From NCBI GenBank assembly GCA_963733375.1, contig CAVTDB010000013.1, positions 32,001-96,000 on the forward strand: a stretch of DNA of 64,000 nucleotides, read 5' to 3'. Below are positions 10,778 to 58,956 of this stretch, piece after piece (the stretch's first letter is position 1; the number at the start of each line of letters is the position of its first letter). Under the pieces are notes generated by a model. It ran no database searches. It was not told the DNA's origin and was given only the letters and a program-made list of their open reading frames with translations. The stretch is from Nitrospirota bacterium. GTDB taxonomy: Bacteria > Nitrospirota > JACRHJ01. The translations under genes were made by a program, and so were the position numbers.

Positions 10778-10819
10778 CGCTTTCTTTTGCTACTTTTCTT
10801 TCTCGCGAAAGAAAAGTAG
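10778..10819. repeat. A/T-rich triplex-type module, single copy (locus 1)
   Basis: CTTTCTTTT-GCTAC-TTTTCTTTC-TCGC-GAAAGAAAA-GTAG between convergent cusA and antiporter genes. Confidence 0.9.
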
Positions 10820-10824
10820 AGGTC

Positions 10825-11835
10825 TTATTTTAAAATAAACAAATAAAGAATAAACAGCGCGTAAAGCCCCCCACAGGCGAGCAGTACGTGCGGCTTTATC
10901 TCCTTCTTTAGCTTTAGCGTTAAATATAGGCCCGAGGCGGACAAAAGCGCGAGGACGGCGGATACCATAGTGGGGCCCCTCAGGTCCCAGTGCGTGAATG
11001 CGACGCCTATGGCAACCGGGAAGCTGGCCTGAAAGACCATCGCCCCGGTGATGTTCCCGACGGCAAGGGTATCTTTTTTGTCCCTTATCCAGAGCACGCT
11101 GTTCATTTTCTCCGGGAAGCTCCGTCGCGATGGGCGTGACCAGCAGGGAGAGTATAAGGGTCGGCACGGAAAGCATCCCTGCCACGTGCTGTACCGCGAC
11201 GACGAAATAATGCGCACCACAACTATCAGGCCAAGGGCGACGATTATCTGAAGCGAGATGAACCGCTTTTTTGCGCGCTTGCTGTTAAAGAGCTTCGAGA
11301 GGTACAGGATTTCCAGCTCGCCGTGGCCTTCTCCTTTATGCCTTAAAGAGACGTACAGATAGACGCCGTATGAGAGCATGAGGCAGGCCGCGATAACATT
11401 ATCTAATAACGCCGTGCGGCGCGAACGTCGCGAGGCAGGCGACCGAAGACATCCCTATGAAGAAGGCTAAATCCCTCTCTTTTACGGCCACGTCGAACTT
11501 CAGGGCTTTCCTGCGCCTGCCCTTTTTGTGGTAGTAAAAGACGGCCGCGCCCGTTACGGACATCGCAAGCGTCGCGAGCATGAACGGAGCGCCCGCGATG
11601 GCCCCAGCGGCCACGTCCATGCCTTCCCTGTTACCCGCGATAAGGGCCAGTACGGGGATGGAGGTCTCCGGGAGCGCCGTGCCCACCGCCGCCAGCACTT
11701 GGAGCCGGTCGCGCCCCGCGATAAGTCCATCTTCTTCCCGGCCCATTCGACCCCGTTCGTGAACAGCTCGCAGGCGAAAAGTATCAGCGCGAGGCTTACG
11801 ATTAAAAGCAGGGGATATAAAAAATATTGAGCCAT
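10825..11835 (-). CDS. sodium:calcium antiporter (CaCA family), frameshifted
   Basis: ACELFTNGVEWAG, LAAVGTALPETSIP, GAIAGAPFMLATL, TPIATELPE, KDTLAVGNITGAMVFQ alpha-repeat motifs. Confidence 0.85.
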
Positions 11836-11845
11836 GATTTACATT

Positions 11846-11944
11846 CTACTTTTCTTTCACGTGAAAGAAAAGTAGCAAAAGAAAGCGGGGCCTTTAATTC
11901 CGGCTTTTCTTTGCCTACTTTCTTTTCACCCGAAAAGAAAGTAG
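11846..11944. repeat. A/T-rich triplex-type doublet (locus 2)
   Basis: CTAC-TTTTCTTTC-ACGT-GAAAGAAAA-GTAGC-AAAAGAAAG ... CTTTTCTTT-GCCTAC-TTTCTTTTC-ACCC-GAAAAGAAA-GTAG. Confidence 0.92.
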
Positions 11945-11945
11945 G

Positions 11946-11975
11946 TTGACAAAAAGATAATTCTGGGGCTAAGAT
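11946..11975 (+). promoter_or_regulatory. putative sigma70 promoter abutting repeat locus 2
   Basis: TTGACA 11946-11951, 18-nt spacer, TAAGAT 11970-11975. Confidence 0.5.
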
Positions 11976-11979
11976 AGTC

Positions 11980-12262
11980 ATGGTCGGAATTATCAACGTT
12001 GACTTGCGGAGAGGATTGGTTTTTCATGGCGTGGGAATGGCATATGATCGAGGAGGAGAAGGCGCTCCGGGCGCTCAAGAAGATGGTGGAAGGCGCGGCG
12101 GTAAAGCTGAAAGAGCCGACTTTAAGCGAACTGGAGGCGGTACGGCTGATGGAGATTACCCGCACATGGGTATCGAAGGTATTCCCGGAGAAACTCCGGG
12201 CTTACGACGCGGCTGAATAAGCCGCGCCTTGAGAACATCTATTACAGGAAGGCCGGCCATGA
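11980..12262 (+). CDS. hypothetical protein (frameshifted)
   Basis: ORF 11999-12220 (EEEKALRALKKMVE...VFPEKLRAYD) looks coding and appears to continue across an indel (KPRLENIYYRK). Confidence 0.45.
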
Positions 12263-12565
12263 AGGACGATAAGCTTGCGGAATCACTGGGAAGAATTGGC
12301 CGTCTCTCTCGGCGTTAAGGTCAATTACGAAAAGATTAAAAAACACACTGCGCGCCAGCCCAAAGGCGGCCTCTGCGTCGTAAATGGCGAGCCGCGCATC
12401 ATCGTGCACCGGCCCCTTGCCGCGTCCGAGAGGGTCCAGGTCCTAATCGAGTCCCTCCAGGGATACGACCTGGAAAACGTATACATGGCCCCTGAAGTCC
12501 GCCAGGCCATCGAAGGCGCCCTGCCGCTACTCCAAAGTGGAGGTAGTTATGAACAAAGACGCTGA
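12259..12565 (+). CDS. conserved hypothetical protein
   Basis: MKDDKLAES + EELAVSLGVKVNYE..KGGLCVVNGEPRIIVH..YDLENVYMAPEVRQAIE; one indel near 12290. Confidence 0.55.
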
Positions 12566-13400
12566 TATACGGGCATACAATCTCCGCGAAAACATTCCTT
12601 TTGGAAAAAGACACCCGAAATAGATGAAAAATTCCTCGACCATCATTATTTGAATCCATCAAATCCAGCTGATACGGATACCGGATCTCTTATCTCAGGC
12701 TTTTATCATCCGCTCAAAACGCAAACATGAAGGCGGGCGTCATTGGGGGATCAATTGGCGGTGTAGAAAAACTATCGAAAGTCCTTTTTAATTTTAATCC
12801 TGCTGCCGTAACACAACATTACGGAAAAGATGAAAGGGAATTACTTGGCACTATTAAAACAGAGCTAAAACCTAATGGCACAGTCAGTGAAAAACCTCGA
12901 AGCATATGGCTTAAATATTGTCGTACCATTTTAGAGGCTGCGGAGTTTTTTTTAGATTTCCATAATGACACCCGAGTTTTATGATTGGGTTAATCATTTA
13001 CTATAAAGATGAAAAATCATTAGATGCTTTGCCGATAGATTTCTTGAAAGAAAAAATTTATGGCATACGGATTTGCTCTCGCGTGTGATTTTCTTACAGG
13101 AACTTGGATTTGTTACAATATGGAAAGCCTGATGTTCAGCATAAAAGAAATATTTGAAGCATTATCTTTCGTTGAAACCAAAGTCATCGGACGACCCAGA
13201 TTTTAACAGCTGATACAACGTATTGCCAGGCAATGTCGGCGTGACTCCTTATAATGTTGATAATGCTGTTTTGGTTAATTGGAAGTGGCAAATTTTACAA
13301 ACACCCTAATATTGCGTGTAACGCGGACGCGTTGTGAGAAGGAAGGAAATATTTATCAATTATTGAGGGAAATATGATATCCAGGACAGCTTCAACTCTA
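12549..13400 (+). CDS. low-GC HhH/EndoIII-like hypothetical protein, heavily frameshifted
   Basis: Manual reassembly across indels gives LLSSAQNANMKAGVIGGSIGG, RSIWLKYCRTIL, approximately GIGFALACDFL.ELG...YGKPDV.IK, VTPYNVD.LFWLIGSGKFY. Confidence 0.5.
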
Positions 13401-13412
13401 GAAAAAGGTGGG

Positions 13413-13628
13413 ATGCCACAGACATACTCGAAGAATTATAGATTTTGCTCAACTTGCGAATTATTGGGGCGGCAATAGAACCGTTGATAATTTTGGATTC
13501 AAAAGCATCATGTTGACTCTTTAGCTATTGAAGGAAAATGTTTATTGCAAGGCGGCCCGTGGAAAGGGCAAAACAGGCAAGCGAATATGTCCTGTAATAA
13601 ATGGGAAAAATGGGCTGCACTAAAATAA
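13413..13628 (+). CDS. small Cys/Trp-rich protein (about 70 aa), not in the ORF track because of indels
   Basis: SD-like AAAGGTGG, then MPQTYSKNYRFCSTCE(Y)WGGNRTVD...EGKCLLQGGPWKGQNRQANMSCNKWEKWAALK*. Confidence 0.5.
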
Positions 13629-13746
13629 CTCGAAAACATAAAGGTCGAACAGCTCAAAGTAACTGCACAACCAGACGTAGGCAAATCCCGAAGGACAAAA
13701 TTACGCTTTCCACGCCTTTTTCCCCCTTTTCGGCTATAATTTAATA

Positions 13747-15278
13747 ATGGCCGAACTTCCACTCATACTCCCGTACGACCAGTACAACTATGAAACTGGT
13801 CGCCAACGTGCATCCGCTCGGACTGGAAAAACCCGGAACCGGCGCCGATGTATAACCTCGTGATAATCGGCGCGGGGACCGCGGGGCTTGTCACGGCGGC
13901 AATCGCGGCGGCGGTCGGGGCGAAGGTCGCGTTGATCGAGAAGCGGCTTATCGGCGGGGACTGCCTGAACCTCGGTTGTGTGCCCTCGAAGACCATAATC
14001 AGCTCGTCCAGGATTTCCCCCGAAGAGGTAAGAGAAGCCGCAAGTCACGGGGTGAATGTAATCTGCGGCGCGGAGGCGGATTTCCCGGCGGTGATGGAGC
14101 GGATGAGGCGGCTTCGGGCGCGCATAAGCCAGCACGATTCCGCCTCTCGCTTCCAGGAGATGGGCGTCGATATTTTCCTGGGCGCGGGGAAGTTCACGGG
14201 CCGCATTCGGCGTAGTGGGAGAGAGCGAATTAAAATTTAAAAAAGCGCTAATCGCGACAGGCGCGCGGCCTTTCGTGCCGCCGGTCGAGGGATTATCGGG
14301 CGTAGGATACTTAACGAACGAAAACATATTCAACCTGACCACCCGGCCCGCGCGGTTCGGGATACTGGGGGGCGGAGCTATGGGCTGCGAGATGGCGCAG
14401 GCGTTAGAGGCTGGGCTCCCAGGTGACCATCTTGCAAAATAAGAGACTGATGGAGAAGGAGGATTCCGAGGCCTCTGCCATTATCCATGGGGTTTTCCAC
14501 AAAGAAGGCGTCCGGATTGTGCTGGGAGACAAAAAAGTAACGAAGGTCGAAGTTCGCGGCAATGAAAAAATCATATTCTGGAGGGGCCGGAAGGGGCGGG
14601 AGACAGGACCGAGGAGCTTCACGTGGACGAGCTTTTAATATCAGTCGGCCGGACGCCGAACGTCAAAGGCCTGGGGCTGGAAGACGCGGGGGTGGAGTTC
14701 GACCTCCGCTCGGGGGTGAAGGTCGATGAGCATCTCCGGAGCACGAACCACGATATCTATGCCGCGGGCGACGTATGCCTGAAATATAAGTTCACCCATA
14801 CCGCCGACGCCGCCGCAAGGGTCGTTGCCGCGACGCCTTATTTTCCGCCCGCCGAAAATTCAGCACGACTTCCGTCCCCTGGTGCACGTTTACGGACCCG
14901 GAGGTGGCGCACGTCGGGCTTTGTCCGGAAGACAGCGCTTGCGATGCCGTGGAGATGGATACGTTCACGAAAGATTTCGGCGAGATCGACCGTACGGTTT
15001 TGAAGGCGAGGAAGAGGGGTTCGTCAAGATCCACGTGAAGAAGGGGACGGACAAGATCCTGGGCGCGACAATCGTGGCCAGAAACGCGGGCGACATGATA
15101 ACCGAGATCGCACTCGCCATGCACACGGAATCGGACTGAAGGAAATCTCCAGACCATCCACCCCTACCCCACCCGCGCCGAGGCCATAAAGCGCGCGGCT
15201 GACGAATATATGGCCTCAAGCCTCACTCCCGGCATGAAGAAGTGGCTCGGCAGGTGGATGGAAATGAAACGGAAGTAA
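13747..15278 (+). CDS. FAD-dependent pyridine nucleotide-disulfide oxidoreductase (LpdA/MerA-like), frameshifted
   Basis: GAGTAG, GGDCLNLGCVPSK, LIATGARP, GGGAMGCEMAQ, GRTPNV, YAAGDV, HPYPT; no C-terminal Cys-Cys pair seen. Confidence 0.85.
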
Positions 15279-15289
15279 AATATGCCGCA

Positions 15290-15799
15290 TTAAAACAGGT
15301 TCAGAAGCTCCTCGACCGCCTTCGCCTTCCTCTGCACTTCCTCCGCCATGTTCTGCTTGTAGTCCACCAGTTTAATGGCCACTTCAGTGTCGAATGCGCC
15401 TATTATCTGCGCCGCGAGGATGCCCGCGTTCTTCGCCCCGGCCTTGCCGATCGCCATCGTCGCGACGGGTACGCCGCCCGGCATCTGCGCCGTGGAGAGG
15501 AGCGAGTCCAGGCCATTTAAAGAAGAGGAATCTATGGGCACGCCGATTACCGGCAGAGTCGTCGCAGCCGCGATAAAACCGGCCAGGTGCGCCGCCCCGC
15601 CCGCGCCCGCTATGATGACTTTTAGGCCTTTGCCAGCGGCCTCGACCGCGAATTTATGCGCCTTCTCCGGCGTCCTGTGCGCGGACGCCACCGTCACCAC
15701 GGAAGGTATCTTGAACTCGTCCAATACCCTCTTCGCCTCCTGCATAACGGATAAGTCCGAGTCCGACCCCATCACTATCCCAACTAGCGGCTGTGCCAT
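15290..15799 (-). CDS. purE: N5-CAIR mutase
   Basis: VGIVMGSDSDL, SAHRTP, AGAGGAAHLAG, PVIGVP, QMPGGVPVAT; intact 169 aa. Confidence 0.97.
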   Translation of the reverse strand: MAQPLVGIVMGSDSDLSVMQEAKRVLDEFKIPSVVTVASAHRTPEKAHKFAVEAAGKGLKVIIAGAGGAAHLAGFIAAATTLPVIGVPIDSSSLNGLDSLLSTAQMPGGVPVATMAIGKAGAKNAGILAAQIIGAFDTEVAIKLVDYKQNMAEEVQRKAKAVEELLNLF

Positions 15800-15900
15800 A
15801 TCGCCTCCTGTTTTTTCTTAAGTACAGCCCATATAGCAAATACGGCCGGTTTAATAAAGTATTTTTCTTGTGCGGGGGAGGGCAGAGGATTAAAATAAGA

Positions 15901-15990
15901 TTATTTTTGGAAATTGTGGGACCAAAAACTTTTAGGTTTTTAACCCCCCGTTTTCTTTTGCTACTTTTCTTTCCCGTGAAAAAAGCGTAG
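15901..15990. repeat. A/T-rich triplex-type doublet, degenerate (locus 3)
   Basis: ACCAAAAACTTTT...TTAACCCCCCG-TTTTCTTTT-GCTAC-TTTTCTTTC-CCGT-GAAAAAAGCGTAG, 9 nt before the addB ATG. Confidence 0.75.
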
Positions 15991-15999
15991 GGACTTAAA

Positions 16000-18949
16000 A
16001 TGACACCTAATCTACATATCCTTCCCTTCGGGCCGCCCGCATGGGAGAAGCGAAAAGAAATACTTGCCGGGATTATCGCCTCGCGCCCTGGGCCCCCGTG
16101 GGATTTCCGCGATATGCTTTACCTCGTCCCGAACGAGCGCATGGTAAAGTCGGTACGCGCGCTGTTCCTTGACGCGCTCTTTGAAAAAACGGGGGCGGCC
16201 GGCTGTATCCCGCCCGGCGTCATGGCCTTGAACCGCTTCATCCAGTCACGGGTGGACGGCACTAAAACTATCTCTCCGCTGGCCAGAAAACTTCTGCTGG
16301 AGGAGGTTTGCCAGGGTATTGCCGGTGTCCCGGGGCTGGAAGACGAGGCCCTTCTGAGGTCGCTTTCAGGGCCGGTTTCAGAGGCGCTGGAAAAGGCGTA
16401 CCTTCATAATGCCGGGGACAGTCTTCTTCACGCAAGCGACAATCCGGCGCTCTTTGCCCTGGCACGCGCAAAGAAAGAGTACGAGAGGCGTCTTTCGGAA
16501 CTGGGCCTTTTGACCGGGCGCGTCTTTTGTCCCTGTGGGAGCCGAAGCCGGAAGGTTTTCCCGAATATCGCCTGATAATACTGGACGGTTTCTACGACGC
16601 CCTGCCGCACGAGCTTCGCCTTATGAAGGCGCTTTCAAGTGGCCGGACGCTCTATTTTATCCTCGAAGCGCCCGGGCTATCCGGCGGATTATCCGCCGAA
16701 AAAGGAAACCGGCGCCGCGCCCGGCGATGCCGCGACGTCAGAACTCGGTGGCGAAGGGATGCCGTACGCGGGTACAGAGCGGCTGATTAACGAGCTGTTC
16801 CCGGGCGTGGAAATAAGGCCGGATTATCCTCCCGCCGAAGAAGACGCTCAATTACTCTCCGGGGCGGTATTCCTGGGGAGGCCGCTTCGGGAGACGGTAA
16901 AGCTTTTAAAAGCCGGAAGTCCCAAGCCTCTCAATTGGCGGATTATCTCCGCCATGACTCTCGAAGACGAAGTCGCCTTTATCGCCCGCACTATAAAGGA
17001 ACGCGCACTGGCAGGAAATTTAAACCTGGATAAGACGCTGGTCATGTTCCCGGAGCCCATACGGTACCAGCACGCCTTCAAGAAAATCTTTGACGATTAC
17101 GGCATCCCGTACAGCTTCCAGGAGACGCGGCCGCTAATCGGCGAACCCCTGGCCCAGGTCTTCCTGGACCTTCTCTCCATCCCTGCCGGGGACTACCCGT
17201 TCCGCCTGATGAGGCGCGCGTTTTACTCGCCTTTAATCACGCTTGGAGAGGCGGGAAACAAGGCCCTGGAGTTCGACCGGTACGCCCGCATTGAGGGGAT
17301 TACCGGCGGGCGGCGGCGCTGGGAGGTTTTAGCCCGTGTCGCCAAATTACCTTTTACGGCCGAGCTTAGTGCGCTCCTTGATTTACTGAAGCCCCTGGAG
17401 GCGAGGGAACTGCATCCGGCAAAATGGGCGGAACTCGCATCAAGTCTGCTGGAGCGCTCCGGGATGGCATTGAAGGCATTGAATCCCCGGAACCTGTGCC
17501 GCCGATAGAGCAGCTTCAAGGGACCCTTTCCGAGCTTCGGGCGGCCCTTAAAAACCTGACCTTGCGGGTGACGCTCGGCCGCTTCATCGGGATATTAAAA
17601 GGGGCGCTTTCCGAGGTACAGGCGAAGAGGACAGCCGACGCCTTTTCAGGCGTGCGTGTGCTGGGCAGGCTGGAGGCGTTTTCGGAAGGGTTCGATACCG
17701 TCTTCATCGCCGGCCTGAACTCAGGCTCACTGCCATCGCCTGTGCGCCGTGATTTATTTTCCCTGGATGAAAAAGGGGCAGGGTCGGCATCCTTGGACGG
17801 CAAGACCCGCGACTGCCGCCTGTTCCTGGGGCTTGTCCTGGGGGCGCGGGAAGTTTACCTGTCGTACCCGAAAGAAAGCGGCGGGAAACCTTCGACCCCG
17901 TCGCCCTGGATCATGGCGCTAAGGCCGTTCGTTATCGCGGGCGCGGCGGAAGAAATTAACGATTACTGCCGCCCCTCCGGGCTGGAGGACGCGCTGGGAG
18001 AAGAAGAATTTATACGCGCGCTATCCATGAACGGATACGGGAGTGTTGCGGCCCCTGCCTCCCCCGTCCATCACCCCCGCCCCCCGTAATCCAAAAGCGG
18101 AGGTTCTCGGTTACGGAACTGGAAGATTACATCAAGTGCCCTTACAGGTACTATCACCGCTGGGTACTCCGGGATAATCCGCCGGAGGAACCGTCCGACG
18201 ACGCGGCTCCGGACGCTTCCGGCAGGGCGGTGCATGGCATACTGGCGAAGTTTTATGCGCGGCGCAGCGGGCCGGTGCGGAAAGATGAGATAGCATAGGC
18301 ATACAAGGAGCTGTCAAAGCTTGCCGATGAACAGTTTGCCGCGCTGGCCGATACCCTGGCGAACCGGGAGGCAAAACGCAAGTTCCTGGAAAAAATCGCG
18401 CCGAAGGTCCTGGCGGCGGACGCTGAACTGCCGCCCGGCACGGTAATAAAAGATGTGGAAAAGAAAATCGAGGGAGAGCTTCCCGTCAGCGACACGGAAA
18501 CAGTTACAGTCGTCGGGAAGATAGACCGTCTTGAGCTTAGCGCAGGCGGCTCGTTTGCGGTAGTGGACTACAAGACGGGCAAATATCCCGGAAAGGAAAT
18601 CCCGCTTGAGAAGGGTTTTCAGCTCCCGCTGTATGCGTACCTGCTCCGGCAATACCTGCCGGAACAAAGGCCGTCCGCATTCATTTATTACAACTTGGGC
18701 AAGGCAGGCGAGACCCGGGACATAGTATGCTACGACACCACCGCTTCACTCCGAAAAGCGGTAAACAGCAAGCAACGCAAGCGCGAAGGCGGCGGGGAAA
18801 TGGATGAGCATATCGACAGCATAGCCGAAAAAGCGTCAAAGGCCGTGCGCGGAATAATTGCCGGTGAATTTCCCAAGGCCAATAACGAGGACGAATGCAG
18901 GTACTGCGAAGTAGCAGACGCATGTCCCGGCGCGGAAGAAGAAGAGTGA
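16000..18949 (+). CDS. addB: AddB/RexB-like PD-(D/E)XK nuclease subunit with Fe-S cysteines, frameshifted
   Basis: ORFs 16000-16575, 16639-17508, 17424-18089 and 18455-18949; FSVTELEDYIKCPYRY, GKIDRLE, VVDYKTG, FQLPLYA, CRYCEVADAC; directly upstream of a UvrD-like gene. Confidence 0.8.
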
Positions 18950-18950: not shown

Positions 18951-19064
18951 AAATCGTTACTTTTTTCGGGAAAAAGGTAACACCAAAAGACTTTTAAGTT
19001 TGTTTTTAAAGCCCACGCTTTCTTTTGCGTTACTTTTCTTTCTCGGAAAGAAAAGTAACGGTTT
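18951..19064. repeat. A/T-rich triplex-type doublet (locus 4), between addB and addA
   Basis: CGTTACTTTTTTC-GG-GAAAAAGGTAAC-ACCAAAAG ... CTTTCTTTT-GCGTTAC-TTTTCTTTC-TCG-GAAAGAAAA-GTAACGG. Confidence 0.9.
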
Positions 19065-22436: not shown

Positions 22437-22533
22437 CTACTTTTCTTTCACGAAAAAGAAAAGTAGCAAAAGAAAACGGGACTTTAACCCCGGCTTTTCT
22501 TTGCTACTTTCTTTTCACCTGAAAAGAAAGTAG
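22437..22533. repeat. A/T-rich triplex-type doublet (locus 5), upstream of gap
   Basis: CTACTTTTCTTTC-ACGA-AAAAGAAAAGTAGC-AAAAGAAAA ... CTTTTCTTT-GCTAC-TTTCTTTTC-ACCT-GAAAAGAAA-GTAG. Confidence 0.92.
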
Positions 22534-23605: not shown

Positions 23606-23642
23606 CCCCCTCCCTTTGTCCCTCCCCCGCAGGCGGGGAGGG
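23606..23642. repeat. G/C-rich triplex-type repeat between gap and pgk
   Basis: CCCCCTCCC-TTTGT-CCCTCCCCC (mirror)-GCAGGC-GGGGAGGG (complement). Confidence 0.7.
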
Positions 23643-24882: not shown

Positions 24883-24989
24883 CCGTTACCTTTTTGGAAA
24901 AAGGTAACACCAAAAACTTTTGGGGTTAAACACCCCGGCTTTCTTTTGTGTTACTTTTCTTTCTCCCGAAAGAAAAGTAACGAGTTTAA
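24883..24989. repeat. A/T-rich triplex-type doublet (locus 6)
   Basis: CCGTTACCTTTTT-GG-AAAAAGGTAAC-ACCAAAAAC ... CTTTCTTTT-GTGTTAC-TTTTCTTTC-TCCC-GAAAGAAAA-GTAACG. Confidence 0.92.
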
Positions 24990-31685: not shown

Positions 31686-31794
31686 AACCGTTACTTTTCT
31701 TTCGGGAAAGAAAAGTAACCAAAAGAAAGCCGGACAGTTTAAAGCCCAAAAGTTTTTGGCGCTACCTTTTTCCAAAAAGGTAGCAAAGGTTTAA
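31683..31794. repeat. A/T-rich triplex-type doublet (locus 7)
   Basis: TAAAACCGTTAC-TTTTCTTTC-GG-GAAAGAAAA-GTAACC-AAAAGAAAG ... GTTTTTGG-CGCTAC-CTTTTT-CC-AAAAAG-GTAGC. Confidence 0.92.
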
Positions 31795-38641: not shown

Positions 38642-38659
38642 GGCTGCTGCCCGGGGTTG

Positions 38660-38822
38660 CTCTCCAAATGCCTGCGAGGTTAGCTGCCGGGCTCAGGCTT
38701 GATAGTACCTTATCCCTTAGAAAGAGCCCGATAAACCGGGCAGCTTGAAAAAGGGAATTCGCCCCGTAAACTTTGGGTCCCCCGCATCCTTCCGGGTTTG
38801 CCCGGAAGAATTTCGGCCGCAA
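38660..38822 (-). ncRNA. c-di-AMP (ydaO-yuaA) riboswitch
   Basis: Minus strand GGCCGAAA..GGATGCGGGGGACCCA..GGGGCGAATTCCC..GGGATAAGGT..GCCTGAGCCCGGCAGCTAACCTCGCAGGC matches the ydaO consensus blocks; downstream gene is KimA-like. Confidence 0.88.
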
Positions 38823-38840
38823 TTATTTAAAAACGGGATT

Positions 38841-38950: not shown

Positions 38951-40263
38951 ATGACTGAGAAAATATTGACTGTAATCGGCGGCGGGCTTGCCGGGTCGGA
39001 GGCGGCCTGGGCCGCGGCCAGACGCGGGATAAAGGTGCGGCTTTTCGAGATGCGGCCCGGGACCATGACCCCGGCGCACAAGACGGGGCATCTGGCGGAG
39101 CTGGTATGCTCAAACTCGCTAAGGTCCCTGGACCTGCATAACGCGGTCGGCCTTCTAAAGGAAGAGATGCGGAGCCTCGGCTCGCTCGTTATGGAGGCGG
39201 CGGACAGGACTGCCGTCCCCGCCGGTAGCGCCCTTGCCGTGGACCGGGAGGCCTTCGGCAGATATATAACCGACGCAATCCTTGGCCATCCCGGTATAGA
39301 GGTAATCAGGCAGGAGATAGCCCAGGTCCCGGAGCCTGTCTCGGTAATCGCCACGGGTCCTCTGACGTCCGACAAGATGGCGGACGCAATAGGCCGCGCT
39401 TACCGGGACGGAGCACCTGCATTTCTATGACGCCATCGCGCCCATAATCGACGCCGATTCCGTTGATATGGATATTGCCTTTCGTGCCTCGCGCTACGGC
39501 AAGGGCGGGGACGACTACGTCAACTGCCCGATGACAAAGGAGCAGTACGACGCCTTTTACGACGCGCTCTCTACAGCCGAGAAGGCCCCGGTGCGCGAGT
39601 TCGAGAACATGCGCTGCTTCGAGGGCTGCATGCCCATAGAGACGATGGCGGAGCGCGGCCGGGAGACGCTGGCGCACGGCCCGATGAAGCCGGTGGGGAT
39701 TACAGACCCTAAAACGGGCGGACGGCCTTACGCGGTCGTCCAGCTGCGGGCCGAGGACGCGGAGCGGACGGCGTATAATATCGTCGGTTTCCAGACCCGG
39801 CTTAAATGGCCAGAACAGGCAAGGGTATTCAGGATGATACCGGGGCTTCAAAACGTGAAATTTATAAGGTACGGGAGCCTGCACCGGAACACGTTCATAA
39901 ACGGCCCATTGTTCCTTGAGCCTACCCTTGAGATGAAGGGGCGGCCGGGTCTTTTCTTCGCCGGGCAGGTATCGGGCGTGGAAGGGTACGTCGAGTCCTC
40001 CGCGATGGGCATACTCGCGGGTATTAACGCGGCGCGTCTTATAAAAGGGCTGGCCCTGGTGACTCCGCCGGAGACGACGGCGCACGGGGCGCTTATCACG
40101 CACCTGACCAAGACGGAGCCCGGCCGCTTCCAGCCGACGAACGTGATTTTTTCCCTTTTCCCGCCGCTCGACGTGAAGGTGAAGAAAAAAGAGGAGCGGC
40201 GTGAGCTGTTGGTGAAAAGGGCGCTTAGCGGATCTGGAAGCGTGGAAGAACAACCTGGACTGA
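38951..40263 (+). CDS. trmFO: tRNA m5U54 methyltransferase TrmFO (Gid), frameshifted
   Basis: [60 protein letters not shown]. Confidence 0.95.
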
Positions 40264-40280
40264 TTCCGGGAGGTTTACAA

Positions 40281-41708
40281 ATGTTTGAAGAACTCGATGA
40301 ACTAAAAAAACACCTGGACAGCCTGCGCCCGATAGACGCGGACAAGATGGCGGCCATGCAGGAAAAGCTTAAAATAGATTGGACATACAACAGCAACGCA
40401 ATAGAAGGAAACAAGCTGTCTTTGCAGGAAAAGGCATTCTTTTTGAGGGAAGGTCTTACCTAGAAGGGAAAACGACTCTCGGAATTTCTGGAAGCAAAGG
40501 ACCATGTCGAGGCCATTTCGTTCCTGGAAGAGGTAGTACAGGAAAAGAAGCCTTTAACAGAAAGGCTGATAAAAGATTTACACGCAATAGTTATGCAGGA
40601 CAACAAGTATGTATGGATAGGCTCGCCCGAAAATAGGATAAAGAAAAGGATTGAATCTGGAAATTACAAGTACGACAACAACGATGTGGTGAAACTCGGC
40701 GGCACCATACATTATTACAAGGACTATTTGCAGGTTCAGGGAGAGATGGAGGCCTTGATAAAATGGTATCAGGAAAACAAAGTTCATAGGGTAGAGCTGG
40801 CGGCCAGGCTCGACGATAAGCTAGTGGCAATACATCCTTTTACGGAAGGTAATGGGCGAGTGTAGAGGCTAGTTATGAACATGATATTGATGCAGGAAGG
40901 CTATGAACGAGCAATAATACGAAACGAAGACAAGATGGAATACTAACAGGCGTTGGACCTCGCGGACAAGGGCGACTACGGTACTTTTATTGCAATAGTC
41001 GAGAGGGAAGATTACAGGACGATGAAGATGGTCATAGACGTAATAGAAGGCAGTGAGGCATTAGGAAAAGAAGATCTGAAACGCATGATAGAAGGTTTTT
41101 AGGAGGAAGTTACAAAACTGGATAAGGATATTGGTGTTATATCTAAGAATGTTGATGATAATATTAGAAAGAAAAACATAGAAAATATTTTATCTTATTT
41201 AGAGGAAACTGCTAAAGGCATAATAGATGAAAACGCAACTAAAGAAAGGATTTTTTTTATAGAATCTCGTAATAATTAGAAATAGTTGGTTGAATCATTT
41301 CTTACACTTTTTTGTTTAAATCAAAATATAAAACAGATATGGTGGGAGAAAGAATCATGGGAAGATAAAGGTCATTTTAAGTGTACAATAGAAGAAGGTT
41401 GCGGTTTTATGATAGTTTTGTAGAGCAGAAGAATGTATATACGCTCCTCGACGCTCCTTTTTGGAGTAATTCCTCGAAAGTATAAATGTATTTTAGTTGC
41501 TTTTTCAAAAGTATCAGGTTTTTTAAGTGACAGTGAGAGTGAGATTATTGGCAAAGATATAAAAGAAAAACACATTGAATTGGGGAATGTTTGGGGTGAT
41601 TATGATAAAAAAGTTCTCGAAGAATTTTTCGTCGATGTGTTTAAAACTTTTATTAAAACTATAAAAAAAGAAATAGAAATAAGAAGGCATATAGCATCAA
41701 ATGACTGA
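40281..41708 (+). CDS. Fic family protein (class II) with low-GC C-terminal extension; several in-frame stops (error or pseudogene)
   Basis: [11 protein letters not shown] inhibitory motif and [16 protein letters not shown] Fic motif; in-frame TAG at 40461 and 40863, with further stops downstream. Confidence 0.75.
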
Positions 41709-42603
41709 TTATCTTTCAGAGTTCTTGAACTACCTGCGCTACGAGAGAGGCGCGTCGGAGAACACCGTCGTCAGCTATGAGAACGACCTCCGGCAGTTCG
41801 TCCTTCACCTGAAAGGTTCGGGCGATGCGGAGCCGGACCTCTTAACGGTGGATAACCTGGACGTGCGGGGGTTTCTCGCGTCTTTGGTGAAGCAGGGACT
41901 TAAAAAATCGTCGGCCCAGAGGAAGCTCGCCGGCATAAGGAGTTTCTACCGCTATCTTTTCCGCGAGGGCTTAATCGAGAAGAACCCGGCGAAGGTCGTG
42001 GCGACGCCAAGGAAGGAAAAATCCCAGCCGTCCGTGCTATCGGTGGACGACGCGGTGATGCTTGTCGAAGCCCCGCGCGGGGATACGCTGGACGGCCTTC
42101 GCGACCGGGCTATACTTGAGATATTCTACTCGGCGGGCGTAAGGATATCGGAGCTTCAGGGTCTTAACCGGGAGCAGGTGGACCTGCCTCAGGGTTTGGC
42201 CAGGGTGACTGGAAAGGGAAATAAGGAGCGGTTCGTGCCGCTTGGGGCGAAGGCGGTTGCCGCTATATCCGCGTATATTTCCGCGTTAGACGCGGAGAAC
42301 AAGGTTGACATCTCGGCCCCGGACGTACCCCTGTTCCTGAACAAGTACAGCCTTCGGCTGTCCGTGCGGGGCGTGCGGCGGGTCGTGATGAAATACGTCG
42401 GCGAAAAACTTATACGGGGTAAGGTCTCGCCGCATACGCTCCGGCATACCTTCGCCACGCACCTGCTCGGAGCGGGCGCGGACCTCCGGTCGATCCAGGA
42501 GATGCTGGGCCATGTGTCGCTCTCCACGACGCAGAAGTACACGCACCTGGACCTGGAGAAGCTGATGAACGTTTACGACAAAGCCCATCCGAGGGCGAAA
42601 TAG
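41701..42603 (+). CDS. xerC: tyrosine recombinase XerC
   Basis: RDRAILEIFYSAGVRISEL, GKGNKER, PHTLRHTFATHLL, QEMLGH..LSTTQKYT; trmFO-xerC-hslVU context. Confidence 0.92.
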   Translation: MTDYLSEFLNYLRYERGASENTVVSYENDLRQFVLHLKGSGDAEPDLLTVDNLDVRGFLASLVKQGLKKSSAQRKLAGIRSFYRYLFREGLIEKNPAKVVATPRKEKSQPSVLSVDDAVMLVEAPRGDTLDGLRDRAILEIFYSAGVRISELQGLNREQVDLPQGLARVTGKGNKERFVPLGAKAVAAISAYISALDAENKVDISAPDVPLFLNKYSLRLSVRGVRRVVMKYVGEKLIRGKVSPHTLRHTFATHLLGAGADLRSIQEMLGHVSLSTTQKYTHLDLEKLMNVYDKAHPRAK

Positions 42604-42608: not shown

Positions 42609-42702
42609 CCGCTACCTTTTTGGAAAAAGGTAGCACCAAAAACTTTTAGACTTTAACCCCCGCTTTCTTTTGCTACTTTTCTTTCCCGTGAAAGAAAAGT
42701 AG
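42609..42702. repeat. A/T-rich triplex-type doublet (locus 8)
   Basis: CCGCTACCTTTTT-GG-AAAAAGGTAGC-ACCAAAAAC ... CTTTCTTTT-GCTAC-TTTTCTTTC-CCGT-GAAAGAAAA-GTAG. Confidence 0.92.
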
Positions 42703-44623: not shown

Positions 44624-44730
44624 AACCGTTACCTTTTTGTAAAAAGGTAACACCAAAAACTTTTGGGCTGAACACCCCCGCTTTCTTTTGTGTTACTTTT
44701 CTTTCCCGCGAAAGAAAAGTAACGGTTTTA
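44621..44730. repeat. A/T-rich triplex-type doublet (locus 9) with perfect 12-bp terminal inverted repeats
   Basis: TAAAACCGTTAC...GTAACGGTTTTA; begins on the hslU stop codon. Confidence 0.93.
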
Positions 44731-47086: not shown

Positions 47087-47235
47087 AAAACCGCACTTTT
47101 CTTTGCGGAAAGAAAAGCGCCCAAAAGAAACGAGAGTAACTTCCTTATGGCAGGTCTAACCCCAAAAGGGGGTTTTTTTGTCCGGTTTCTCTTTGCGTTA
47201 CTTTCTCTTTCCCCAAAGAGAAAGTAACGGTTTAA
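47087..47235. repeat. A/T-rich triplex-type doublet (locus 10) with a variant module and an internal hairpin
   Basis: CAC-TTTTCTTT-GCGG-AAAGAAAA-GCGCCC-AAAAGAAA ... TTTCTCTTT-GCGTTAC-TTTCTCTTT-CCCC-AAAGAGAAA-GTAACGGTTTAA-ATG. Confidence 0.9.
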
Positions 47236-52565: not shown

Positions 52566-54391
<1,826 letters not shown>

Positions 54392-54392
<1 letters not shown>

Positions 54393-55726
54393 TGGCCGAC
54401 GTAATACCGTTTCGGGGAGTAAGGTACAACCATTCGTCAAAATTATCGAAGCTTGTCGCGCCGCCCTATGACGTAATCTCGCCGCAGTACAGGCAGGAAC
54501 TCTACGACCGGGACCCTCATAACGTCGTCCGGATAGATTTCGGCATGCCCGAGGAGGGCGACTCCGCGGACAACAACCAGTACACGCGCGCGGCGAAAAG
54601 CCTGAAGCGGTGGATCGGAGACGGGGTCCTGCGGCGCGAAGAGAAGCCCGCGCTGTACCTCTACGAAGTGGAGTACGAGACCCCGGCGGGCGAGAAGAAG
54701 TCCATGCGCGGCTTCATCTGTCTTCTTCGGCTGGAGGAGTGGGACAAGGGCATAGTCCTCCCGCATGAAGGCACTCTGAAGGGGCCCAAGGCGGACCGGT
54801 TCGAGCTATTAAAATCCGCTTCCGCCGCCGCGAGCCAGGTGTTCTCGCTGTACTCGGACCCGGAAAAAAAGATATCGAAGGCGTTCGAGTCCGCCGCGGC
54901 TAAGCCCCCTTCCGGGGAGGCGACCGACGACGACGGCTCCGTGCACAGGATCTGGGTCGTGACAGACCCGGAGATAATCAAGGCGGTGCAAAAGGCCATG
55001 GCGGACAAGAAGGTTTTCATTGCCGACGGCCATCACCGTTACGAGACGGCGCTTGGCTACCGCGACTACAGGAGAAGCGAGGCCGCCGCATGGACGGGCG
55101 GCGAGGGCTTTAATTTCATCCCCATGTTCCTCTCCAACATGGACGAGGACGGCCTTACGGTACTGCCTACCCATCGGCTGATAAGCGACGCGGGCGAGCT
55201 TACGCTGGACTCCGTGCTGGAGCGGTCCTCGCATTATTTCAAAGTAAAGCGGTTCTCGTTCCTCACGGAAAACGAGTATGACGCGCGGTCGGAGTTCCTT
55301 CGTTCACTTTCGGAAGCGGGAAAGAATTCCCACTCCTTCGGCTTCTGCTGGGACAGCGCCCCATGCTATTACCTCCTTACCCTTAAGGACCTGGACGACG
55401 TCGCGAAGGCGCAGTGGTGCCCGCGCTCGGATACCTATTGCAGCCTGGACGTCACGATACTTCATTCGCTTATAGTGGAGCGCGTGCTTGGCATCGACAC
55501 GGAGAAGATTGCCGTGTCCCAGCCGGTGCAGTTCGAGAAAAACGCCGACAGGGCGATAGAGCGGGTCGCGGCCGGCGAGTTCGCCATGTGCTTCCTGCTG
55601 AACCCGACCAAGGTGCAGGAGGTGAAGGAGGTCGCGCTGGCCCATGAGATAATGCCGCAGAAATCGACTTACTTTTATCCGAAGCTCCTGACCGGCCTGG
55701 TGATAGCGGATTTGAACCATATATAA
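54392..55726 (+). CDS. DUF1015 family protein
   Basis: PFRG, APPYDVI, PHEGT, IADGHHRYET, PTHR, MPQKSTYFYPK. Confidence 0.9.
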
Positions 55727-55838
55727 ACCGTTACTTTCTTTTCGAGAAAAGAAAGTAACACAAAGAAAAGCTGGGGTTAAAGTCTCGCTTTCTTTTGTGT
55801 TACTTTTCTTTCCCGCGAAAGAAAAGTAACGACTTTAA
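55724..55838. repeat. A/T-rich triplex-type doublet (locus 11)
   Basis: TAAACCGTTAC-TTTCTTTTC-GA-GAAAAGAAA-GTAACAC-AAAGAAAAG ... CTTTCTTTT-GTGTTAC-TTTTCTTTC-CCGC-GAAAGAAAA-GTAACG. Confidence 0.93.
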
Positions 55839-55848
55839 GAATTAAAAA

Positions 55849-56307
55849 ATGCCTAAACTTACCACCATCGCCGGGATAATCAAGGAAGTCCTGAAGGCGC
55901 GGGGCCTGGGAAGCGGGGATACGCTCTCTAAGCTCCGGGGTAAATGGGCAAACGCTGTGGGAGGGAAAATCGCACAGCACGCACAGCCTCAGATGATCAG
56001 AGAGGGGCGGCTCACCTTGACCGTTGACAGCCCCGCCTGGATGTCCCAGCTCTACCATGCTCTCCCCCGAGATTATAGAAAAAATAAACGCGGCGCTTGA
56101 AGAGGGCGCGGTCCGGGAACTGAAGTTCTGCCTGGGTACGCCCGCAAAGAATGAAAAGAGAAAAGAAGGCGGCTCCCATAAAGAAGCGTGAGATTTCGCC
56201 CGAGGAGAAAGACGCCATAGAGGCGCGCCACGGCGAAAATTGGGGACAAGGAGCTTCGGTCCTCCGCAAAGAAAATGCTGTCCAAATCATGCAGGAGGGT
56301 GAAGTAA
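55849..56307 (+). CDS. DUF721/DciA-like protein, frameshifted
   Basis: WANAVGGKIAQHAQP..GRLTLTVDSPAWMSQL; reassembled tail EIIEKINAAL...IGDKELR. Confidence 0.75.
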
Positions 56308-56994
56308 TGGCCTGCGACTGCAAGAACTGCATCGTCAGGGGCCTCACTATTTTTTCCGGCCTCGGCATAAGCGAGCTTGAGAAGGTCGGGACGCTGATAT
56401 ACCTGAAAAGCTTCCGCCGCAAGAAAGTAATCTTCCTCGAAGACACGCCAAGCAATACCGTTTACGTCCTGAAGACCGGCACGGTCAAGTGCTATAAATC
56501 GCTGCCCGACGGCCGCGAGCTGATAATCAGCATCCTCACCCCCGGCGACATGCTGGGCTTCGACTCCCTCTACGAAGACCACTACTCAAATACCGCCGAG
56601 GCCATACAGGACACGGAGCTTTGCTGCATCCGAAAAAAGGACCTGGTGGACCTCCTTCAAGAGCAGCCCCGAGGTCGGCGTCCGGTTCATCAAGAAGATG
56701 AACAAGGAGCTTCAACTCGCGCAGGAGCGCATCCGGGACCTGGGCCTGAAGGACGCGCGTGAGCGTGTGGCGACTCTTCTGATGACGCTCTTCATCTCTC
56801 GCGGAGAGGGCCAGGTGCCCAAGTTCACCCTGTCCCGGCAGGAGATCTCCGAGATGGCGGGCGTCGCCCAGGAAACGGTGATAAGGATAATTTCCGAATT
56901 CAAATCGGACGGGCTGATTAAATCGGAAGGCAAAAACATCGTAGTGCTGAAGCCGGATGAACTGCGGAAGACGGCAGGGATATTTGAGATATAA
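56307..56994 (+). CDS. Crp/Fnr family regulator with N-terminal Cys cluster, one frameshift
   Basis: MACDCKNC, cNMP-binding fold (GTVK, PGDMLG, TAEA..TELCCI), HTH LSRQEISEMAGVAQETVIR. Confidence 0.88.
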
Positions 56995-56997
56995 TTT

Positions 56998-57097
56998 CTT
57001 CTTTTCTTTTACGGAAAAGAAAAGAAGCAAAAGAAAACGGGGCTAATTTAAGTCCGGCTTTCTTTTGCTACTTTTCTTTCACCCGAAAGAAAAGTAG
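56998..57097. repeat. A/T-rich triplex-type doublet (locus 12)
   Basis: CTTC-TTTTCTTTT-ACGG-AAAAGAAAA-GAAGC-AAAAGAAAA ... CTTTCTTTT-GCTAC-TTTTCTTTC-ACCC-GAAAGAAAA-GTAG(GAGG). Confidence 0.92.
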
Positions 57098-57104
57098 GAG
57101 GTTT

Positions 57105-57912
57105 ATGAAAGAACTGACAGTTGCAAAACGCGCCGCAAAAGAGGCGGGAAAAATATTGCTCTCCTACATGGGGAAGCTGGAGCATGTCGAGTATAAGGGC
57201 CGGCGCGACCCGGTAAGCGAGGCGGACAAGGCGTCCGAGAAGCGGGTCGCGGAGATAATCAGGGAGGCGTTTCCGGCGCACGGATTTCTGGCGGAGGAGA
57301 AGACCTCGTGGACAGGCCAGGACAAAAGCGCCCGCTGGATTGTGGACCCGCTGGACGGCACGGTTAATTATGCGCACGGCTATCCGCACTTCTCGGTCTC
57401 CATCGCGTTCGAGAGGGACGGAGAAGTTCAGGCGGGCGTGGTATTCGACCCGGTGAAGAAAGACCTGTTTTCCGCCGTCAAAGGCGGCGGCGCTTTTTTG
57501 AACAACACGCCGATACGGGTATCAAAGACGAGGACGTTGATAAAGTCGCTTATCGTGACCGGCTTCCCTTACGACATCGAGAGCCGCCCGAAGGAAATCC
57601 TCGAACCGTTTAACCGGATGGTCCTGGCGTCGCAAGGGGTACGGCGTGACGGCTCCGCCGCACTGAACCTGTGCTACCTTGCCGTGCGGCCGCTTCGACG
57701 GCTACTGGGAAATGGGGCTTAAGCCCTGGGACACCGCGGCGGGAATGCTCATCCTGCGCGAGGCGGGCGGAGTAGTGACGGACTTCAAAGGCGAGCCGTT
57801 CAAGCCGGAGATGCAGGAGATACTGGCGAGCAACGGAAAGATACAGAAAGAAATGATGGAGGACTCTGGAAAAAAAGGGGCACTAAAAATTACTCCCTCG
57901 GCCAGACCTTGA
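57105..57912 (+). CDS. suhB: inositol monophosphatase family protein, frameshifted
   Basis: [42 protein letters not shown]. Confidence 0.9.
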
Positions 57913-58799
57913 ACTTCTCCACCATCCGTATCGGATTATAAGACTGCTTGGATTTTTTCAGGTTCGGCTCGCCCAGGTCCTGCTCGCGGTTCACGAATTC
58001 GATATCCGGGAACTCCTGCTTTAAGAACTCGCTCGAAATATATTGATACAGCCCCGAGTATTCCTGGTTCGCTTTCTCCACGTGCACGACGACCATTTCC
58101 TCGTTTAAAAGCTCGCCCAGCGACAGCGCCTCGACAACGCCGTTTATAAGGACTACGCCGCCGATGGTGGAGAGGTCTTTCAGGTGGTCCAGCGCGTGCT
58201 GCGTCGCCTCCGCCTCGCCGAAAGTGGACGGTATGTTTACGGAGCATTTCTCGCGGCACCAGCGATCGACCAGGTCCTTTGCCTGCGGGACAAGCTCCGG
58301 CGTGAGCCTTCTGTATTCCGGGTCATACCTCTTTAGGAATCGGTTCAGCAGGTTCTTCTTGTCGTGGAATTTCCTGCCGGAGAGCGAGATGAGTTCGGCC
58401 GTGCTGTAAACGTAATCGCTGTCGTCCTGGCTCAGTTCGTATTTATATTTAGGGTCCCCCTCGATATATTTTTTGATGAATTCCGCTGATGCCAGGTTGA
58501 CCACGGGCAACTCGTCATCTCTCCCGCATGAAATCCATCTGACTGTTCATCGTTTCCGGGATTTTATTATCGCCGACGGGCGGGAAGAAGTAATATTCCC
58601 CCTGGTAGGACTTTGCGTAGAAGAGGAGGTTGCCGTTAAGAGTGCTGATTTTATAATCGTGGACGTGCTTGAACATGAAGAGGTTCGTGAAGCAAAGCTC
58701 CGAGACCTCCGGCCTGAGGGCGCGGAATATCGCCTCCACCGGCTCCCGGTCGGAAAGCTCAATAGGGCGGAACGCTGGAAATTTCGGGAAGTCGGCCAT
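57890..58799 (-). CDS. DUF2156 (aminoacyl-transferase/MprF C-terminal-like) protein, frameshifted
   Basis: [53 protein letters not shown]. Confidence 0.85.
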
Positions 58800-58826
58800 T
58801 GAAGAAATTATAACACCAAAACCCTT

Positions 58827-58956
58827 CTTACTTTTCTTTCGCGAAAAAGAAAAGAAACAAAAGAAAACGGGGCTGAAAAACAATTTATCGGGTTTAAACA
58901 GTCCGGCTTTTCTTTGTGTTACTTTCTTTTCACCTGAAAAGAAAGTAACGACTTTA
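58827..58956. repeat. A/T-rich triplex-type doublet (locus 13)
   Basis: CTTAC-TTTTCTTTC-GCGA-AAAAGAAAA-GAAAC-AAAAGAAAA ... CTTTTCTTT-GTGTTAC-TTTCTTTTC-ACCT-GAAAAGAAA-GTAACG. Confidence 0.9.

Follow-up and report, generated by a model that had tools for sequence, protein, structure and literature searches.

Potential intrastrand triplex repeats of bacteria were described in the 1990s, and no function has been agreed on for them since. Here we report on a dispersed A/T-rich repeat in a Nitrospirota bacterium (lineage JACRHJ01, assembly GCA_963733375.1), in which each copy, or module, consists of a homopyrimidine/homopurine hairpin followed by a purine tail that mirrors the purine arm. The stretch of DNA that we analyzed, referred to as the window, comprised 64,000 nucleotides (nt) of contig CAVTDB010000013.1 (positions 32,001 to 96,000). 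The genome it came from (G000; 2.39 Mb, 26 contigs, 81% complete, 55% G+C) was one of three genomes of a repeat-rich genus (G000, G001, and G002, the last from a sister species). An initial annotation of the window had interpreted the repeat as a candidate triple-helix element. Our results showed that selection acts on the three-tract geometry of the module; the triple helix itself is proposed from the mirror register in the sequence, and this proposal is partly supported.

The closest described systems are the PIT, BoxC, and TMECO repeats of Escherichia coli and the catalogue of ITxF motifs (Holder et al. 2015, PMC4666352). According to the available part of that source, these repeats are likewise dispersed, mostly intergenic, and linked to genome rearrangement. 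Both the ITxF motif and the module described here consist, in order, of a pyrimidine block and a purine block joined by one loop, with a second loop leading to a third block, which fits the triads. Specifically, the ITxF definition calls for three blocks of 6 to 15 nt, loops of 1 to 6 nt, and triads of AAT/GGC/TAT or TAT/CGC with at most one mismatch. PIT-type repeats, as treated there, couple a class II motif on one strand to a pyrimidine-motif class on the other, as the present module does. In the same text, TMECO is G/C-rich (CCCTCNCCC / GGGNGAGGG / GGGNGAGGG), has a 3-nt second loop, and lacks a stem extension, whereas our module is A/T-rich in a genome of 55% G+C; A/T-rich motifs are regarded there as largely due to chance.

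Anatomy of the module and the mirror rule

The module was about 45 nt long. It began with an A/T-rich homopyrimidine/homopurine hairpin of 13 to 14 bp, followed by a linker of 1 to 3 nt that ended in c, a purine tail of 8 to 16 nt that mirrored the purine arm, and the bases c(g/c/t)gg. The outer end of the stem was a Watson-Crick extension of 3 to 5 bp (GTTA/TAAC, CTA/TAG, GTA/TAC, CCA/TGG, and others) that covaried and was separated from the tail by 1 to 3 nt; the simple paper-clip geometry drawn in the initial annotation left this extension out. In the window, variant A had the tracts CT4CT3C / GA3GA4G and the tail A4GA3G, and variant B had CT3CT4C / GA4GA3G and the tail A3GA4G. The exact type-A hairpin (TTTTCTTTC, 3 to 12 nt, GAAAGAAAA) occurred eight times in the window and the exact type-B hairpin three times, and neither pattern occurred in 100 dinucleotide shuffles.

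Across G000, 330 A/T-rich pyrimidine/purine hairpins were parsed, and in 243 of them the tail was perfectly mirrored (type C, 90; A, 76; B, 39; B-short, 18; A', 10; others, 10). These modules lay at 154 loci. The earlier expectation of hundreds of modules per genome was thus borne out, while the expected density of one locus per 5 kb was too high, the actual value being about one per 15 kb.

The mirror register was examined in the modules whose arms were perfect and at least 8 nt long and whose tails measured at least 7 nt. In G000, the tail was the exact mirror of the purine arm at register 0 in 147 of 159 modules, and registers shifted by 1 or 2 fitted 0 to 3 of the 159. A direct copy of the arm fitted only 12 modules, all of self-mirror types. 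The 412-kb contig of G002 gave a similar result (mirror, 65/66; direct copy, 9/66). Chimeras with an A arm and a B tail, or the reverse, were absent among the 115 A or B modules of G000, and at least 12 arm patterns carried a mirrored tail: (4,3), (3,4), (4,4), A5, A6, (5,3), (6,3), (6,5), (4,3,4), TTTCTCTTT, AAGAAA, and a 16-nt pattern. The genome-wide extraction that the initial annotation had suggested found the tail, pyrimidine arm, and purine arm moving together. In the case of type C, the mirror was limited to the A run because the outer GG of the purine arm faced cc in the tail strand rather than GG.

A second contact involved the loop. Among the 112 modules with four-base loops (types A, B, B-short, and A'), P2, the second base past the tail, was Watson-Crick complementary to loop base N2 in 109 (G-C in 58 and C-G in 51), and N3 paired with P1 in 101. 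When P2 was shuffled, the mean was 55.7 pairings and the maximum 73, and neighboring column pairs gave 0 to 67. Loops had been described as varying freely, along with linkers, but they covaried with the two bases beyond the tail. Because a loop base pairs with the flank past the tail, the module has the topology of a pseudoknot in which the tail runs along the stem. Each loop class was found on all four arm backgrounds. The order of parts is arm, loop, arm, tail, flank, so the two couplings interleave; simple recombination of two ancestors cannot yield all of the combinations, and repeated coordinated change is needed. The three tracts and the loop-flank contact were thus jointly constrained, in a register that lines up every tail base with one base pair of the stem.

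We also searched other genomes. Among 11 other genomes belonging to the same family, 9 contained type-A hairpins; the 29 genomes searched from other families of the phylum contained none. An exact-pattern scan of one genome per species found the module in Stenotrophomonas, in Desulfobacterales, and in a Feifaniaceae genome, and type B with its tail was found, among the matches listed, in many Clostridia/Eubacteriales and in Lentisphaerae/Victivallaceae, Hydrogenedentota, and Oscillospiraceae. The type-B scan pattern contained the tail, and therefore only the bystander modules in those loci count as evidence. These showed new arm patterns, each with a mirrored tail: (4,4), (4,3,4) twice, (6,5), (6,3), and (5,3).

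For a prospective search, we reduced the pattern to the (4,4) hairpin, without any tail, and obtained 75 usable hits. A mirrored run of at least 8 nt was present on one flank in 62 of the 75 and on the other flank in none. The matches with a mirrored tail came from Stenotrophomonas, Lysobacteraceae, Solimonas, Lentisphaerae, Ruminococcus, Oscillospiraceae, Clostridiales, a Peribacteria genome, Micrarchaeota, and others, and in four matches the mirrored tail was 16 nt long with four G positions. New loop/flank pairs were seen in other phyla as well (TG/CA and GA/TC; with 4 bp, GCGC+G/CGCG, AGCT+G/CAGC, and TTGT+G/CACA). The (4,4) hairpin was observed in metagenome-bin records of DPANN archaea (Micrarchaeota L338 and L340) and of the candidate phyla radiation (Peribacteria L330), with a mirrored tail in L338 and L330 and none in L340.

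The module had no match in Rfam: at the gathering threshold the window gave only a c-di-AMP riboswitch (RF00379, 71.3 bits, positions 38655 to 38828, minus strand), and the loci from other phyla gave nothing relevant. A description of the module was not found in the literature searched on triple-helix elements in bacteria, Nitrospirota repeats, and mirror repeats or H-DNA in prokaryotes, although the supplements of PMC4666352 or the ITxF database may list such motifs.

Modules of the window and their counterparts in a sister species

The repeat with its mirrored tail is present in the window. Between 10778 and 58949, our parse assigned 23 modules at 12 loci to the family, which is close to the 13 loci and about 25 modules counted initially, and variants A, B, D, and A' and the short A5 form (type C) were all found where they had been reported. 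One further parsed hairpin, the 24th, at 15967 is probably due to chance. The modules are given below; all come from the parse, and other evidence is named in brackets.

10778 to 10819, minus strand: single type-A module, hairpin CTA-CTTTTCTTTC-gcga-GAAAGAAAAG-TAG, linker c, tail AAAAGAAAG, then cg (sequence)
11846 to 11887, plus strand: type-A module, left half of an A>B< composite (fold)
11902 to 11945, minus strand: type-B module, right half of the A>B< composite with 11846 to 11887 (fold)
18956 to 18992, plus strand: degenerate C/A-hybrid module, composite inverted relative to G002 (G002 comparison)
19016 to 19060, minus strand: type-A module
22437 to 22478, plus strand: A'-like module, closing pair a C.A mismatch, tail matching the purine arm
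22492 to 22533, minus strand: type-B module, whole composite 22437 to 22533 missing at the orthologous G002 site (G002 comparison)
24885 to 24918, plus strand: type-C module, CCTTTTT-gg-AAAAAGG, tail A5, then CTTTT
24937 to 24981, minus strand: type-A module, loop ggga and flank cc, in G002 loop gga and flank ct (G002 comparison)
31690 to 31731, plus strand: type-A module, loop gg and flank cc, in G002 loop ga and flank ct, a compensatory change (G002 comparison, fold)
31751 to 31784, minus strand: type-C module
42611 to 42644, plus strand: type-C module
42661 to 42702, minus strand: type-A module
44628 to 44661, plus strand: type-C module
44679 to 44723, minus strand: type-A module, G002 copy degenerate (G002 comparison)
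47096 to 47132, plus strand: short variant, arms CTTTTCTTT/AAAGAAAAG, tail AAAAGAAA
47184 to 47229, minus strand: type-D module, arms CTTTCTCTTT/AAAGAGAAAG, tail AAAGAGAAA
55730 to 55772, plus strand: type-B module
55786 to 55830, minus strand: type-A module
56998 to 57039, plus strand: type-A' module, arms T4CT4/A4GA4, tail AAAAGAAAA
57056 to 57097, minus strand: type-A module, final stem bases overlapping the ribosome-binding site of the next gene
58831 to 58869, plus strand: A'-like module, closing pair mismatched
58905 to 58949, minus strand: type-B module

The window was collinear with G002 at about 94% identity. The 109 modules on the G002 contig included 78 that mapped to an orthologous module, 8 without one, and 23 that could not be mapped. 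Of the 78 orthologous pairs, 59 shared an identical tail, 53 identical arms, and 34 an identical loop, and at the divergence of the flanks an unconstrained 9-mer would be identical in about 7% of pairs. That divergence was taken from the 55 pairs of the same type, in which the 10 nt outside the hairpin differed at 142 of 550 sites and the center at 186 of 550 (26 to 34%).

Ten of the 78 pairs showed a concordant switch of type (A/B in four pairs, C/A in two, and A'/B, A'/B-short, A/B-short, and A5/A6 in one each, the last in all three tracts), and in one A-to-B switch the loop, extension, and flank were all unchanged. Compensatory loop/flank changes were observed as well: gg/cc versus ga/ct, gcga/cg versus ga/ct, ggga/cc versus gga/ct, and gggt/cc versus gcgt/cg. 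Whole composites differed at two loci. The whole composite at 22437 to 22533 was present in G000 and absent from G002, and the element at 18956 to 19060 was inverted relative to its G002 counterpart (L100), with a C-like module followed by A in the window, an A-like module followed by C in G002, and collinear flanks.

These data bear on the possibility that there is no structural selection on the tail and that a few mirror-symmetric master copies expanded and were kept uniform by gene conversion or re-insertion. The modules were indeed nearly free of mismatches (about four genuine single mismatches, too few for a strand-of-function test that compares wobble with C.A pairs), and whole-module replacement at orthologous sites was frequent, with 10 type switches among 78 pairs and with combinations that recurred. 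The view that the family is more than a few clonal expansions must be qualified by this turnover. Uniformity through conversion is hard to reconcile with the loops of same-type pairs, which differed at 14 of 134 sites (10%) and had changed length in 12 of 55 pairs. Because the loops diverged between two invariant arms, and conversion tracts cannot skip a loop, gene conversion alone cannot explain the invariant arms. Moreover, the loop classes were interleaved with the arm types, the 12 or more arm patterns obeyed the mirror rule over several phyla, and the prospective search found the tail on one flank only (62/75 versus 0/75). On this evidence, and given the frequent module replacement, we consider an expansion of master copies improbable rather than refuted.

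Two regions of the window were A/T-rich islands, namely, 12001 to 14000 and 40001 to 42000 (G+C fractions of 0.47 and 0.43, compared with about 0.57 elsewhere). At the first, G002 had a gene for a 508-amino-acid protein where the window genome had a composite repeat. The G002 insertion at the 11846 locus was an ordinary 508-amino-acid gene rather than one for a transposase.

Composite elements and their surroundings

In G000, two unlike modules usually formed a pair. G000 contained 95 tail-to-tail composites, each built around a small G+C hairpin whose stem covaried (GGAC/GTCC, GGGG/CCCC, and GGGC/GCCC), and the whole element, at about 130 nt, resembled a transposable element of the miniature inverted-repeat kind (MITE). 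Like MITEs, the composites were small and non-coding and had terminal inverted repeats in the form of inverted modules with AAACC...GGTTT flanks (outer ends AAACC-GTTAC ... GTAAC-GGTTT). No clean target-site duplication was found at the filled and empty sites compared. The commonest composites were C+A (41), followed by A+B (18). Homotypic composites were absent from the 95, with 25.6 expected from the type frequencies, an absence that keeps the two tails from complementing each other perfectly.

The composites also raise the question of whether Watson-Crick pairing explains the tails. In one version, the tails are the A and U tracts of a small bidirectional terminator formed by the central hairpin; in another, tail and pyrimidine arm are competitors for the purine arm. 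The minimum-free-energy fold of an A+B composite paired both tails, each tail of an A+B pair exactly complemented an arm of the partner module, and a terminator scan flagged central hairpins followed by a T-rich tail (e.g., 24920 to 24938 and 22492 to 22477). However, terminator-like sites were not enriched in the region (21 versus 23.0 expected), the central stems were only 4 to 5 bp, and in the short form half of these stems were missing. In A+C and B+C composites, the commonest kind, each tail matched its own hairpin and not the partner, and the mirror rule was kept in single modules. Homotypic composites would pair their tails perfectly, yet none existed, and a direct copy of the arm, which would be the better competitor for the purine arm, was not used. 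We therefore give a switch or terminator little credence. The narrower model in which each tail pairs with the arm of its partner fits A+B but is refuted by the A+C and B+C composites and the single modules. A plain intrinsic terminator was rejected as well, as the initial annotation had proposed: the stem is A/T-rich (3 to 4 G-C of 13 to 14 pairs), and a T run follows only some copies.

By a crude gene call, 227 of the 243 modules were intergenic, and 108 of the 142 classifiable loci lay between co-directional genes, with median gaps to the flanking open reading frames (ORFs) of 17.5 and 23.5 nt, so that the operon spacers were filled. The outer end of a module was often 5 to 15 nt from the next start codon (window 57056 to 57110, G000 C12:9030, and other loci), and at such loci the ribosome-binding site lay directly after the final stem bases or overlapped them.

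Outside Nitrospirota, the module formed the sharp left end of longer conserved non-coding repeats. The Eubacteriales repeat was about 520 nt long (L234:4562-5100 and eleven sister copies), with a promoter-like site, TTGTTT...TATAAT, about 180 nt inside. In Desulfobacterales (L164, L168, and L173) and Stenotrophomonas (L165), the repeats were G+C-rich long hairpins of about 215 nt. Rfam gave no match to any of these longer repeats.

Another explanation was considered, in which the module belongs to a mobile repeat of the MITE or repetitive extragenic palindrome (REP) kind, the tracts are protein sites in duplex DNA or A-tract shape signals, the hairpin is a terminal inverted repeat, and no triplex is involved. 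The intergenic composites with inverted ends, the presence/absence differences, inversion, and module replacement between the sister species, the position of the module at one end of the longer non-coding repeats, and the self-mirror core AAAGAAA common to all types are consistent with this explanation. The tail itself argues against it. To a protein, a site and its mirror image are different, direct-copy tails, which would suit a repeated protein site better, were confined to the self-mirror types, and mirrored tails of 13 to 16 nt with 3 to 4 G positions exist. When the G moves, the spacing of the cores, as we read it, shifts by 2, which a protein with fixed spacing would not tolerate, and the Watson-Crick covariation of loop and flank is left unexplained. 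In addition, no recurrent transposase-like or mobile-element gene was found near the modules when 1951 ORFs from 150 loci in many taxa were clustered, and the Y1 (RAYT) transposase (PF01797) was absent from G000 (81% complete), G001, and G002, which carried 77, 21, and 66 type-A hairpins, respectively. We regard protein sites in a mobile repeat as an unlikely reading. The absence of the Y1 transposase from the repeat-rich genus ruled out a REP/RAYT reading specifically. No parent insertion sequence was found for the module, and a BLAST search with a Desulfobacterales copy gave no match among plasmids.

Two other small repeats were observed in G000. A sequence of 34 to 37 nt (core CTGTCCAGAGCGA, with its own CTGTC/GACAG inverted repeat) was lodged between the loop and the purine arm in at least 11 modules. 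It had 28 copies in the genome, outside the window (e.g., G000 C13:104156-104316), some within other repeats and within itself. It was missing from the same hairpins in G002 (C6 near 292644 and 310541) and so looks like a tiny, recently mobile insertion, one that appears to target GAAA-type sites. The second was a small family of G-rich pyrimidine/purine hairpins (CCCTCTCCC/GGGAGAGGG and TCCCCCTCTT/AAGAGGGGGA), some with a mirrored G-rich tract after the hairpin (G000 C8:20319, C13:5232 on the minus strand, C7:14499, C26:327717, and others); a copy without a tail lay at 23620 in the window. This family resembles E. coli BoxC/TMECO.

Proposed fold and comparison with known systems

We propose that the module is a structured nucleic-acid element of about 45 nt and that a single strand of it folds as an H-type pseudoknot with the tail as the third strand, a proposal whose chances we put at slightly better than even. 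As in H-type pseudoknots, the hairpin loop pairs with the flanking strand, and the pairing is supported by covariation within G000 (109/112), by the pairs in other phyla, and by compensation between orthologues. The tail would occupy its stem's groove with one base beside each base pair, and the loop-flank mini-helix would lock it there. The initial interpretation as a triple helix agreed with our results in the coupling of the three tracts, but not in its free loops and simple geometry.

By geometric reasoning rather than computation, the strand with the 5' pyrimidine tail, which corresponds to class IV of Holder et al., would carry the coherent version of the fold. Its triples, T/U.A-T/U with isolated C+.G-C, would run parallel to the purine arm in the major groove, and a linker of 1 to 2 nt would cross that groove over the 3- to 5-bp extension, much like loop 1 of telomerase-type pseudoknots. 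The other strand, with the purine tail, satisfies the purine-motif code (class II). According to the available part of PMC7583470, two or more consecutive C.G-C triples destabilize RNA triplexes, while long U.A-U helices with a single C+.G-C are stable; the cytosines of the pyrimidine tail were isolated in every case, which matches this rule. Intrastrand pyrimidine-motif triplexes are described as forming in both DNA and RNA in the accessible text of PMC4666352.

Several results weigh against this fold or narrow it. The conventional fold of an A+B composite consisted of three hairpins with the tails paired together (-47.6 kcal/mol) and needed no triplex. In type C, with 90 copies, the outer GG facing cc satisfied neither triplex code, and the flank was constantly CT, independent of the loop; two-base loops likewise had mostly the flank CT whatever N2 was. 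In the prospective search, 13 of the 75 matches lacked a long mirrored run. In Stenotrophomonas and Desulfobacterales, the tail ended at 8 nt whatever the closing pair. Orthologous sites often showed replacement of a whole module, and one combination, A-gggt-cc versus B-acgg-cg, recurred three times; since the same combinations recur, many of the switches are copy replacement from a limited repertoire rather than independent mutations. As for the strand, the paired extension leaves a linker of 1 to 3 nt, which by geometric reasoning would be awkward for the purine-tail strand. In single modules, the pyrimidine tail came first in the mRNA sense in 23 cases versus 14, a weak bias, and it lay on the G-rich strand in 29 versus 14 (p = 0.03), but in a Eubacteriales genome the purine-tail orientation followed upstream stop codons. 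Therefore, no strand or molecule was singled out.

Our best guess is that the pseudoknot would act as a recognition structure, or as a stability or protection structure, at the ends of non-autonomous mobile repeats, in the form of single-stranded DNA or a transcript. We favor this role because different non-coding repeats have the module at their ends, depending on the phylum, and because it turns over fast and attracts insertions. A role in the stability or processing of operon mRNA is the main alternative. Tentatively, and with the odds somewhat against it, we suggest a broader reading: a horizontally spread, prokaryote-wide module whose selected state would be a pseudoknot-locked intramolecular triple helix of 8 to 16 consecutive triples, serving as a structural end that lets non-coding repeats be recognized, copied, or protected as single-stranded DNA or RNA. 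If true, this would be the first natural class of long triplexes outside eukaryotic and viral ENEs that is backed by three-way sequence covariation.

Natural triple helices are hard to demonstrate, and the module family bears on that problem. The kind of evidence that established RNA secondary structure, many independent and coordinated changes, is available here for a third strand; the unused direct copy of the arm provides an internal control, and the second covarying contact, between loop and flank, fixes the topology. Because the module occurs in cultured organisms (Stenotrophomonas and Porcipelethomonas) and its natural variants range from 8 to 16 triples, the triplex question is directly testable. 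In the Nitrospirota lineage, the module fills much of the operon-internal spacers, attracts insertions, and turns over fast, and it therefore matters for annotation, assembly, and the evolution of intergenic DNA.

Among known structures, the H-type pseudoknots with a major-groove triplex (telomerase RNA and the SAM-II and preQ1-II riboswitches; PMC7583470) have, as presented in the available part of that review, the topology that we propose for the pyrimidine-tail strand. In these, the 5' strand pairs with the hairpin loop, and a U/T-rich loop 1 lies in the major groove of the second stem with U.A-U and C+.G-C triples. They are described there as having 2 to 5 triples and as single-copy functional RNAs with defined ligands or partners. 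In contrast, the present module implies 8 to 16 triples, has a loop helix of 2 to 4 bp, is multicopy in both orientations, and lies outside Rfam. The ENEs of MALAT1 and PAN, including the ENE-like elements of transposon RNAs, have the long U.A-U run broken by single C+.G-C triples that the module would have, and they share a possible link to mobile-element transcripts and RNA end protection. In an ENE, a 3' A-rich tract is clamped in a U-rich internal loop, whereas in our module the tail would be laid onto the purine arm of a simple hairpin. In the accessible text of the triple-helix reviews searched, PMC7583470 among them, the prokaryotic examples were riboswitches and group II introns, and prokaryotic ENEs were not reported.

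REP/BIME elements with RAYT and MITEs such as Correia and ERIC/RU are likewise short, intergenic, and palindromic repeats that often occur inside operons as inverted pairs, and they share presence/absence polymorphism and targeting by other insertions with the present module. REPs are G+C-rich, bear a GTAG tag, and are found together with a Y1 transposase, none of which applies here: instead of a G+C-rich palindrome with a GTAG/CGTC tag, the module has 3 to 4 G-C of 13 to 14 pairs and outer bases such as GTTAC, CTAC, and GTAC. In duplex DNA, the tail and the adjacent arm also form a mirror repeat with a 5- to 7-bp spacer, as in H-DNA. H-DNA motifs are normally not coupled to an inverted repeat of the same tract and lack loop-flank pairing, whereas the module has both.

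The comparison is closest with the ITxF motifs. The blocks of the module were 9 to 10 nt long and fitted the triads with an exact mirror in the 147 of 159 modules noted above. Loop 1 was 2 to 4 nt. The second connector, made up of stem extension and linker, came to 4 to 6 nt in types A and B only when the paired part was treated as loop, and in type C it was 9 nt. The TMECO/BoxC consensus, CCCTCNCCC N3-6 GGGNGAGGG N3 GGGNGAGGG, did not describe the A/T-rich tracts. The module differs from the PIT/TMECO repeats in its A/T-rich tracts, in a paired extension by which the hairpin runs 3 to 5 bp beyond the triplex tracts, in the pseudoknot lock between loop and flank, in its obligately heterotypic pairs, and in its spread across many phyla.

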